From: Perna viridis
Lineage: Eukaryota
Reading direction: 5' to 3'
Length of the DNA: 64,000 bases
Assembly (NCBI GenBank): GCA_037379345.1
Contig: CM074512.1
Location: 3,658,001 to 3,722,000, forward strand
Shown: positions 21,301 through 24,300 of the stretch, piece after piece
How positions within the stretch are numbered: the first letter of the stretch is position 1
Layout of the letters: every line of letters begins with the position of its first letter
Program-made: the position numbers and the translations under genes
The notes under the pieces: model-generated
What the model was told of the DNA's origin: nothing
Database searches by the model: none
The model's input: only the letters and a program-made list of their open reading frames with translations

Positions 21301-24300
21301 TTCCAAGACTTGTGATACTCCTGGTCTGTTGTGTTAGCTCAATTCTTCCAATACTTGCAATGACAAACTGTACCAGTACCATAACTTGAAAAAATTGGAG
21401 ACCAATCTGGGGATCAGAATTTCCTTAATATATGCATATCTACCGGTACATACTGTACCCTGGCCATATAGTGTCATGAAATTCTGTTCATTAGTGTCAA
21501 ACTAGTTGCAATGAGAAAAAGAGGACTGATGGAGGACAGACTGATGGACGCATAAAAAATGTTATTATCCCAATAACAAATTCCTAACTTTGTTGCATGG
21601 GGTATATTTCTAACAAAAATTACAAAGTCCAACTATCATCCAGTTCCACAACATTTCATGAAAATCAAGATCCTATGACCATGCTCACCATCATTATGTA
21701 TATAAACATCCTGCAAAATTTTTTTTAGATGTAGTTCAGAAACTGTACAAGGAGATAGCCAGACAAGCCATATAGCCTCATTTCTGATGAAAATGACCAA
21801 ATGTAACTATCACCAATTTCCAGAATATTTCACGAAAATCAAAATCCTTTGGCCCTGCACACCTTCATCATATGTAGAAATATCCTGTAACAAATTTTAT
21901 ATGTAGTTCAAAAACTGTACGAGGAGATAGCCAGACAATCCATGATCATGTGTAATCTGAATGGACGATCATGTGTAATCTGAACAGATGAAACAACGGC
22001 ACAACGGATGAACAGACACACAGTTTGTCGCGGGGACATAGAAAATATTCTAGATTCTCATCCCCTCCCGGCACAAGTTTTTTACTCTCCCTGAAAAATG
22101 ATGTTATGATTTTTTTCCCAATTAAGTTCAATTTCTTTCAAACTGGCAATTTTTTTTCACTTAAATGATAAATAAATAAAATTTGCCCGCCCATCTATTT
22201 AGAAAAATGTGTCTAGGAATCTAAATTTTTTTATGATGGCCTAATATGAAAGTAATCCACCAAGTAGTAAAGGAATGACTAATATTTTTTTGGTCTATCA
22301 AGAAATAACCTCAATAACATGGTGCATACTAAATAACATGCATAGCAGGTTATTTTCAAGTGTGCACCATGGACATTATGGTAATTTCAAACAGACCGAA
22401 GATAATATAATAGTTATTCCTTATAATCCAATTTTAGTATCAGAATTCAACAATTAATATATAAAAAGGTTGTAAAGTCACAGTCACATTACAAAATTTG
22501 GTCTGTATCATCAAAAAAGTTTCATACAATTTTTTTCACTATTGAACAATCTTCAAAATTCTTAGGAACTAAATCTACAATAAATAAAGGCAAAAACAGT
22601 TTATACACAGTAAAATTTATTTAAGAATTGTGTATGAAGATTTGGTTACACTTTTTGGTTACCCATTGTTCATAAAATATTTTTGTCCTAAAAAAAATTA
22701 AGTGAATCTTAAATTTCCACCACTCTTTCCTTGAATTATCATTCAATAGCTATGGTTTTATTCATGGTTTTTATGAATTAACACAAACTAATATTTCATT
22801 TCTGTTATTTATGATATTTTACAACTATAAAATTTCTATAGAATTTCGAAATGGAGTTCTGGTAATTTGTTAAGTTTTATAAAGACCGTCATCTCAAATA
22901 GAACAGACTGGCAAAGAAAAAATCTAACCATTATTTGGCTGAATGGTCCCATCTTCATTATGTTTTGGAACTGTTCATACATATCTCTCAATGTAAATTG
23001 ACCTGAAAAGGAAAAAAAAAGTTATTATTGAAAAATATCCACAGGATTATCTCCCCTTACATATTTAATAATAGTTTTAATTATTGGCATCATATTTTCC
23101 CTTTTCCTTAATAATAATTTACAAGAACATAACATAAAAATAATGTTTGTGAATGTCATATCGCACTTTCGGTTCAAGTATAAAACATATCTAACCATTG
23201 TTTTGCAATTTAAAACTTTATTTATTTAAATATCTCAAAGTTTCAACAACAAAATGTCCATTTTTTTAAGGTTTATAAATAAATCCAACTCCTAACGAAA
23301 CAGGTTGTGCTCCCCTGAAACTTGCTTTGAGGTTACAAACTGATGCATAATGCCATCATAACCTTAGGGAAAGTCCCCAGACCCAGGACAGAGAGTGTCC
23401 AGCTACTGATTCCCTGCATCCTGACCATTGCTCACATTAAAGGCTGTGATGTCTAGACGGAGCTGTGGGTGGTTAGGTGTTTGTCATAGCAAAGTCATGC
23501 AAGTACTACCCACTGGGGTAGTAACACAATGGGGCTTATCCTAGGGGAGTACACATTTTACTACATGACCAATAAGAAATTTCACTAAACCACAGCCACT
23601 TGAACTTTTTTCACTTGTGACAAGTATGGACACAATATAAGTTTTTGACACACTAGAGACTTACTGTTCAATTTGGACACAATATTTTGAATTTAATTTT
23701 AAGTATAAAGGTCTGCTCAGGGTGCATTCATGGATCATTTTGTCATAGTTTTCCTTTCCTCTTTTGTCCACCCCATCTTGTTCTAGAAAAGGAGAGGACA
23801 CTTATCCTACTAGTGCACCTGGTCCATGTTTCCAGTTGTTAGTGGAGTCCATGTCTCATATTTACTTTTGTGACTTTGTACGTATCATTTTGGTTATTTT
23901 ATATTCTTTGTTGTGTGAGTCTGTTTTCCATGTCTGATCTTTGTCCCTGTATTATGTTCTTTTGTTTTCTACTAGAATCTTGGTTCCCTTGATTTGTACC
24001 TCATTATCTCAAAAACAATAAATGATAGGGTTAATTTGGTAAGCATACCTTTTAAAGCTCTTGTATGTAAGCTGGGATTTTCATATGGGATCCAATAATT
24101 TTTTTTTTAATCAAAAATAAAAAAGTAAATTTTTTGGGGTGTGGTCCCCTTTGGTCCCATATAATTCAAAAACTGTAAAAGATATCTGAAATCTGATTGA
24201 AAATGCAGGCAATGATTTTCATCAAATAAGGAATGAGGAATCAAATATAAAAATTCAAAATCACACCAGAAATAAAAAAAATCAGAAAAAAAACACTTGT

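Follow-up and report, generated by a model that had tools for sequence, protein, structure and literature searches.

RNase MRP is a standard ribozyme that cuts the precursors of ribosomal RNA (rRNA) and is found across eukaryotes. MRP RNA is separated from RNase P RNA by a GARAR pentaloop on helix P8, a three-pair P5 beside conserved region (CR) I and a six-base CR-IV (PMC13184271), and the GARAR loop of P8 is given for MRP RNA together with an AnAGUnA consensus for CR-IV (PMC1796607). The human enzyme contains RMP64 and RMP24 plus the proteins shared by RNases P and MRP, and cuts pre-rRNA in internal transcribed spacer 1 (ITS1) (PMC13184271). Here an RNase MRP RNA gene is described from a stretch of 64,000 nucleotides of Perna viridis DNA (contig CM074512.1, positions 3,658,001 to 3,722,000), referred to as the window, in which it lies on the + strand inside intron 10 of SRP54, a gene of the - strand. 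We hold with good confidence that this gene is intact and antisense to its host, that it likely has its own RNA polymerase III (Pol III) transcription and that, of the two copies in the genome, it is likely the main working one.

The original prediction, made from the letters of the window, had called the locus an RNase MRP RNA gene, and covariance-model searches bear this out. When the whole window was scanned with cmscan, a complete match to Rfam family RF00030 (RNase_MRP) was found at 23307-23551 on the + strand, covering model positions 1-266 with 123.5 bits (E 3.8e-34; the Rfam gathering cut-off for this family is 50 bits), and it was the sole above-cut-off Rfam match in the 64 kb. The corresponding search of the genome returned two loci. 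The gene has a GC content of 0.486, compared with 0.24 and 0.37 for its 300-bp flanks, and the RNA has a fold z of -4.0, with none of 200 shuffled sequences as stable. RNase P RNA (RF00009), which is marked by a P7 stem and an eight-base CR-IV, was considered as an identity and rejected, as MRP is the best match within the clan and the genome search with RF00009 gives two other loci, both on contig C9, and not the window locus. Since MRP is the best clan match and the P8 GARAR loop, P5 and the six-base CR-IV are all present, the RNA is assigned to MRP and not to RNase P. The mature RNA is predicted to be about 253 nt long (23303..23555, + strand) from the RF00030 match and from a start set by the TATA spacing shared with other type-3 Pol III genes. 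An RNA gene is thus present within the span first proposed, but the start given for it, 23274, is that of the TATA box.

The elements of the RNA, all on the + strand, follow the MRP order, and those named in the original prediction (the TATA box, both P4 strands, the GAGAG loop of P8, P19, the TTTT run and the single CpG) sit where they had been placed. The 5' strand of P1 (23306..23317) pairs with 23542-23553 in the minimum free energy fold and is followed by the 5' strand of P2 and the P3 hairpin (23320..23368), as placed by Rfam alignment, fold and comparison with the second copy. CR-I, GAAAGTCCCCA (23369-23379), forms the 5' strand of P4 and runs directly into the 5' strand of P5 (together 23369..23382). 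In the three-pair P5 adjoining CR-I, GAC at 23380-23382 can pair with GTC at 23483-23485, a partner that we infer from its position beside CR-I; the pairing is kept in the second MRP copy and in an MRP gene from a metagenome (L029). The P8 hairpin (23387..23399; Rfam alignment and copy comparison) reads GACA-GAGAG-TGTC and so carries a pentaloop of the GARAR type. Just 5' of the 3' strand of P2 lies CR-IV (23491..23498), AAAGTCATGCAAGT from 23491, in which AAAGTCA fits the AnAGUnA consensus (PMC1796607) and AGTCAT is the six-base form. It is followed by the P19 hairpin of eight pairs (23504..23523; fold and copy comparison) and by CR-V, TGGGGCTTA (23530..23538; Rfam alignment and copy comparison), which is the 3' strand of P4. 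All nine pairs drawn for the P4 pseudoknot between CR-I and CR-V are standard, identically in both MRP copies, and the Rfam alignment of the window copy shows P1, P2, P4, P8 and P19 without any non-standard pair mark.

SRP54 was traced on the - strand from a start codon near 46,740 to a stop near 18,270, with Pfam matches in five of the six exon frames tested and ten coding exons preceding exon 11. Coding exon 11 (22929..23002, - strand) is defined by its boundaries and by a Pfam SRP_SPB match of 29 bits, and in the stranded run X21 it is covered to a depth of 22-25 with first mates on the + strand only, as expected for a messenger RNA (mRNA) of the - strand. Intron 10 (23003..26673, - strand), which holds the MRP gene, has GT..AG boundaries, and joining exon 10 to exon 11 across it keeps the reading frame. 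The predicted MRP start stands 300 bp from the exon 11 acceptor. The antisense nesting at this distance, which had been predicted, is therefore established through the boundaries of intron 10 and the strand of the host. Because it is antisense, MRP RNA cannot be excised from SRP54 pre-mRNA, and the predicted need for a promoter of its own, for Pol III, holds given this nesting.

Evidence for expression comes from sequencing runs chosen for containing this stretch, of which 8 of the 24 listed were mapped, no run in that list being recorded as RNA. Six presumed RNA runs from five studies were used as contigs (X4, X11, X7, X10, X12 and X20; five are taken for RNA by guess, and for X20 the kind is not recorded), and in all six one contig with the window copy's letters covers the MRP gene. 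Contigs of X7, X10, X12 and X20 agree with the window copy at all 12 distinguishing substitutions and at the gap, and those of X4 and X11 are one letter off the window. Their spans and depths are 23320-23544 and 7.4 (X4), 23260-23556 and 3.9 (X11), 23264-23629 and 3.9 (X7), 23325-23558 and 4.6 (X10), 23321-23579 and 6.2 (X12) and 23315-23552 and 19.7 (X20), the window positions of X10 and X20 being converted from L001 coordinates. Three contigs (X4, X10, X20) are confined to the gene and its T run, and two (X11, X10) end in that run, at 23556 and 23558. The X4 contig has a depth of 7.4 in the gene against 3.0 and 3.7 in flanking intron contigs. X7 and X10 do contain RNA, since spliced exons of the kinase gene that hosts the second copy are present in them. 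The contigs favour a discrete RNA from the window copy, short of proof. Bins from 23,600 to 24,100 were ignored, being swamped by a repeat; this highly repeated element (23620-24100, just downstream of the MRP gene) reaches a depth of about two million in X15, a DNA-like run, and has many copies in the RNA runs.

The second MRP copy lies 3 Mb away (match at G000:C2:6745113-6745360; gene at L001:1492-1755 = G000:C2:6745104-6745367), scores 131.7 bits and is 91% identical to the window copy. Two MRP loci were found by Rfam and again by DNA search of the genome, copy counts from such searches being lower bounds. The second gene, too, is antisense to its host, a NEK-type kinase gene; the intron that contains it measures about 4 kb, and the next acceptor is about 250 bp away. 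Exons of this host give Pfam Pkinase matches on both sides of the intron and NEK2, NEK1 and NEK7 matches in PDB, and contigs of X7 and X10 show the exon adjoining the MRP copy joined by splicing to the exons beside it. While the flanks of the two copies are unrelated, the stretch from CR-I to P9 is identical, and their 26 differences are concentrated in P1, P3 and P19. The window copy was used to draw 65 pairs. In the second copy 53 of them are the same, five are kept by a change on one side, four by changes on two sides and three are unpaired in that register; two of these three belong to P3, a helix that is paired in the Rfam alignment of the second copy itself, with no non-standard mark. 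In P1, where all 12 pairs are kept, two are changed on both sides and three on one side, and that five of twelve pairs have changed with none broken argues for selection on both copies since duplication.

To a reading in which both copies work, in different tissues or stages and each with a partly degenerate promoter, we give somewhat less than an even chance. All conserved regions are kept in both copies, the changes in P1 spare its pairing, a candidate distal promoter motif is present in both, and two dispersed copies were found for every dispersed RNA gene searched (MRP, RNase P, U6atac, U12, selenocysteine tRNA [tRNA-Sec] and 7SK). What speaks against it is that the second copy's letters occur in none of the six presumed RNA contig sets, though both MRP copies are seen in the DNA-like X15. 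This reading is compatible with the window copy as main working copy and differs only in the share given to the second. As a separate observation, both members of the MRP, RNase P, U12 and tRNA-Sec pairs lie on one contig each (the U12, tRNA-Sec and 7SK loci being L023, L024, L025, L026, L030 and L031).

Promoters were compared across 13 genes of the small nuclear RNA (snRNA) type, namely two MRP, one U6, two RNase P, two U6atac, two tRNA-Sec, two 7SK and two U12; motifs and bins were picked after viewing these genes, and the backgrounds given are guides and not tests. Upstream of the window MRP gene a TATA box, TATAAATA (23274..23281, + strand), lies at -29 relative to the predicted start at G23303, the same place as in the U6, RNase P and U6atac genes. 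An octamer-like TTTGCA site (23201..23209, + strand) lies at -101, a motif found at -76 to -105 in 9 of the 13 genes against a background of 0.06 per bin. Further upstream, at -256, is the distal motif TTATCTCCCC (23047..23056, + strand), a candidate distal sequence element that recurs at -230 to -281 in nine genes (background 0.005 per bin) with the consensus TTAYCTCCC in either orientation. An ACC core at -59 to -65, found in 11 of the 13 genes (background 0.14), is likely the proximal sequence element (PSE). Type-3 Pol III genes are marked by a TATA box some 30 bases upstream, a PSE near -60, a distal element near -240 and at least four T following the RNA. In the second MRP copy the ACC core and the distal motif are both present, TATA is replaced by the variant CATAAAA, and the octamer-like site is missing. 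This comparison gives a first view of the snRNA-type promoter of Perna viridis, made up of TATA, ACC core, octamer-like site and distal TTAYCTCCC. The distal motif as a 13-mer, ATTATCTCCCYTT, has 4,276 matches in the genome against 56 for a reversed control (76-fold), partly through repeats. Within the window it occurs at 2665, 23047 and 40219, and many of its genome copies lie in repeats. Its interpretation as a general mark of 3' splice sites was rejected, with an acceptor-like site after 1 of 30 instances in the relevant orientation against a background of 6.8%.

On these elements the following course would be expected. Pol III would start about 29 bases past the TATA box, near G23303, with the octamer-like site and the distal motif probably assisting. 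It would stop in the T4 run on the + strand (23556..23559), the likely terminator, or continue to a T6 run 47 bases further on (23606-23611). The RNA of about 253 bases would, by its family membership, fold into the MRP catalytic core, and by analogy with human it may bind POP1, RMP64, RMP24 and the proteins common to RNases P and MRP, and cleave pre-rRNA within ITS1.

Several observations weigh against the window copy as the main source of MRP RNA. The TATA box near -30 and the TTTT run after P1 are present as predicted, but the proposed comparison with U6 and the other promoters found no ACC core, the likely PSE, at -63 of the window copy. A position weight matrix of the PSE from six genes scored -14 at the expected site, with a weak site 9 bases upstream, the matrix being itself too weak for a decision (leave-one-out -3.5 to 6.8) and the PSE of this genome too loose for scoring. 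The terminator is T4 only and is probably leaky, because T4 runs occur inside other Pol III genes here, namely the second MRP copy (30 bases into its RNA), one gene for RNase P RNA and the two 7SK genes. On Rfam the better score belongs to the second copy (131.7 against 123.5 bits), and the comparison of pairs favours the window copy, since the helices were drawn on it and no pair could be broken there. Among the contigs, those of X11, X7 and X12 overrun the predicted gene ends, so that pre-mRNA of the intron can explain part of the coverage; contigs also reveal neither strand nor ends, and assemblers drop minority variants. X21, the sole raw RNA run (19% read, cDNA, selection unstated), has no read on the MRP gene and is 22-25 deep on the SRP54 exon. 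A poly(A)-selected library would lose MRP RNA.

Much of this would suit a reading in which the window copy is a duplicate of recent date, silent or weakly transcribed, the copy in the kinase intron makes the RNA and the contigs are pre-mRNA of the SRP54 intron. The missing ACC core, the T4-only terminator, the lower Rfam score and the silence of X21 all fit it, as do the X4 intron pieces that continue beyond the gene at depths of 3-3.7. We nevertheless judge it unlikely. The differences between the copies in P1, P3 and P19 leave pairing kept, and P1, P2, P4, P8 and P19 hold no non-standard pairs; TATA, octamer-like and distal motifs are kept amid unrelated flanks; and contigs limited to the gene come from three studies, with the second copy never in the RNA sets. 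The original prediction had held that a better-conserved expressed copy elsewhere, together with no transcript from this locus, would make the window gene a pseudogene. A slightly higher-scoring copy does exist, but the six presumed RNA runs gave contigs of the window copy and none of the second.

The working of the window copy had also been questioned on the ground of its composition. The terminal P4 pair is G-C in human and A-U here, and the gene was said to hold a single CpG, so that the pair might be compensatory or reflect CpG decay in a pseudogene. The A-U pair is indeed present, in both MRP copies; the Rfam consensus is G.U, so one side only differs. As the pair is common to both copies it is a shared change and not the decay of one. 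The gene does have one CpG (23458) against about 15 expected. The CpG ratio (observed over expected) comes to 0.07 for each MRP copy, 0.00 and 0.12 for the two genes of RNase P RNA and 0.17 for each U6atac gene, compared with 1.36 for the arrayed U6 genes and 0.9-1.0 for the two 7SK genes; along the window it is 0.14-0.29 over the gene-rich 1-44 kb and 0.77-1.0 over 48-64 kb. Because other intragenic RNA genes and the gene-rich part of the window are equally depleted, CpG depletion is best taken as a mark of location and not of death. In oyster and mussel, methylated bodies of housekeeping genes are marked by low CpG (PMC2996979; 10.1101/2025.08.27.672726), and by analogy the CpG loss of the MRP gene likely reflects a predicted methylation of the SRP54 gene body and not lost function. 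Between 44000 and 48000 of the window, near the place where SRP54 has its start codon (~46,740), the ratio climbs from 0.15 to 0.9, a sharp border between gene bodies that are likely methylated and unmethylated DNA.

The marks of a processed or decayed pseudogene were likewise lacking: the gene is full length, its pairing and three promoter-like motifs are kept, and no A tail follows it in the sequence 3' of the gene. Decay through CpG loss was rejected as an account of the locus on the shared A-U pair, on copy differences that mostly keep pairs and on a CpG loss common to the RNase P and U6atac genes and the gene-rich window. It is improbable that the window copy is a pseudogene, and of the two explanations first offered for the A-U pair the pseudogene is disfavoured. 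A distant MRP gene from a metagenome (L029:584-839; 96.7 bits, on a 2.3-kb contig) has G-C as its terminal P4 pair and no CpG depletion. There was no sign by eye of SRP54 on that 2.3-kb contig, this being a single distant gene from one metagenome scan.

The placement of the window gene is shared by other type-3 Pol III genes of this genome. Among 11 type-3 genes examined, all seven intronic ones (both MRP, both RNase P, both U6atac and one tRNA-Sec) are antisense to their hosts, which has a two-sided P of about 0.016 if the insertions are independent. The pattern was noticed post hoc in one genome, and of the seven hosts three (SRP54, the kinase and Hobbit) have firm evidence, while four are probable. 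The genes for RNase P RNA (L017:1501-1788 and L018:1501-1785, on G000:C9; 141 and 138 bits) are nearly CpG-free and appear to lie antisense in introns of a HEAT-repeat gene, which we take to be GCN1-like, and of a Hobbit/BLTP2 gene that has a Pfam match on either side (E 5e-4 and 1e-4); a PDB search with the exon beside RNase P copy 1 gave no match. The U6atac genes (L019:1501-1621 and L020:1501-1623) also appear to be intronic and antisense, one in an SH2 adaptor gene and the other in a gene for which Pfam gives no match, and one tRNA-Sec gene is apparently antisense in a RING-finger gene. One U12 gene, transcribed by RNA polymerase II (Pol II), is sense in a TRPM-like intron. From start to next host acceptor the four P/MRP genes measure 300, ~250, 337 and 289 bp, and the U6atac genes ~815 and 860 bp.

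From these data we suggest, tentatively and as a possibility that we doubt, that intronic type-3 genes are selected to lie antisense, with P/MRP starts 250-340 bp from the acceptor and the distal element abutting the exon, and that the two MRP copies split the promoter parts between them and may differ in use. The broader statement that all type-3 Pol III genes are antisense and intronic was rejected, as both 7SK genes and U6 are not intronic. No clear host exons were found within 3 kb of both 7SK and four vault loci, which lie in CpG-rich DNA (the exon scan covered two of the four vault loci), and no flanking host exons were found in 10 kb for tRNA-Sec copy 1.

Head-on Pol III interference with SRP54 transcription, which had been raised as a collision with the host, is possible by analogy with the MIR in Polr3e. 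That the MRP gene is retained in place because it tunes SRP54 output in this way is very doubtful: the Polr3e mechanism has been shown in mammals (about 1.5-fold at the protein level and strong only in antisense; PMC5358760) and all seven intronic type-3 genes here are antisense, but their hosts are unrelated and the two copies of each RNA lie in different ones, which points to chance landing in housekeeping genes.

Further RNA genes and repeats were encountered in the course of these searches. U6 forms a tandem array at G000:C2:52195776-52240417 (L003-L014) with at least 48 equal-scoring genes in a CpG-rich unit of ~690 bp, and the arrayed genes carry an octamer near -77 and lack the distal TTAYCTCCC motif. 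About 50 tRNA-like genes just below the tRNA-Sec cut-off stand in tandem in a unit of ~520 bp at G000:C6:43388203-43414625 (L027, L028). Seven vault-RNA-like matches of 37-44 bits occur in CpG-rich DNA in two clusters (G000:C9:43527403-43530595 and C7:25744143-25761256). A GC-richer repeated element of ~400 bp has copies at window 24815-25222 and 49019-49413 and at L030:1927-2310, one of the three lying in the SRP54 intron with the MRP gene and one beside a 7SK gene. Elsewhere in the window, an exon-like frame on the + strand at 5681-6001, which is presumably KCTD3/SHKBP1-like and has no Pfam match at E 0.01, belongs to a gene converging on SRP54, and fragments at 59575-60313 and 63563-63922 read like the reverse transcriptase of a long interspersed nuclear element and the pol end of a long terminal repeat element.

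For annotation, the value of the locus is that an MRP gene is invisible as an open reading frame and that a diverged second copy exists. If the antisense bias is real and selected, the locus would be a natural test of the head-on sharing of a methylated gene body by Pol III and Pol II, and if the bias and the fixed spacing to the exon hold in relatives, they would point to a rule for the survival of essential Pol III genes in methylated housekeeping genes. A literature search on the duplication of MRP genes, on Pol III genes nested in antisense, on the distal motif and on MRP in bivalves returned nothing on this locus or pattern, which is no proof of absence.

Compared with known RNase MRP RNAs (RF00030; human RMRP, yeast NME1), the window gene has in common a match to the whole model, P1-P4, P5, the P8 GARAR loop, P19, CR-I, CR-IV and CR-V, and it resembles known MRP genes in a TATA box and T run of the type-3 Pol III kind. 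It departs from the RF00030 consensus in A-U for G.U at the end of P4 and in C for U in CR-IV (AGUCA), both found also in the second copy, and from the RMRP/NME1 family in having one CpG only and no ACC core at the PSE position. Perna viridis has two dispersed MRP copies in its genome, whereas one is present in most species surveyed (PMC1796607). An intronic antisense layout has already been reported for the Drosophila melanogaster MRP RNA candidate in an intron of CG10365; the host gene differs, and the Drosophila genes have a clear conserved PSE, which the window copy lacks. The RNase P RNA gene of the centipede Strigamia is likewise a Pol III gene, intronic and opposite to its host (PMC4287351), although it encodes RNase P and not MRP. 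The RNase P RNA genes of a snail and an oyster are intergenic, whereas both copies in Perna viridis appear intronic, and intronic RNase P RNAs of insects and crustaceans are described as having no Pol III signals and relying on the Pol II transcript of the host (PMC4287351). The window MRP gene is unlike the latter in being antisense with its own TATA box and T run. The MIR antisense in intron 1 of Polr3e is also a Pol III unit within a Pol II gene, but it is a short interspersed nuclear element whose interference was shown by deletion (PMC5358760). In sum, the window gene is an ordinary RNase MRP RNA gene in a known layout, and its intronic antisense placement has precedents.

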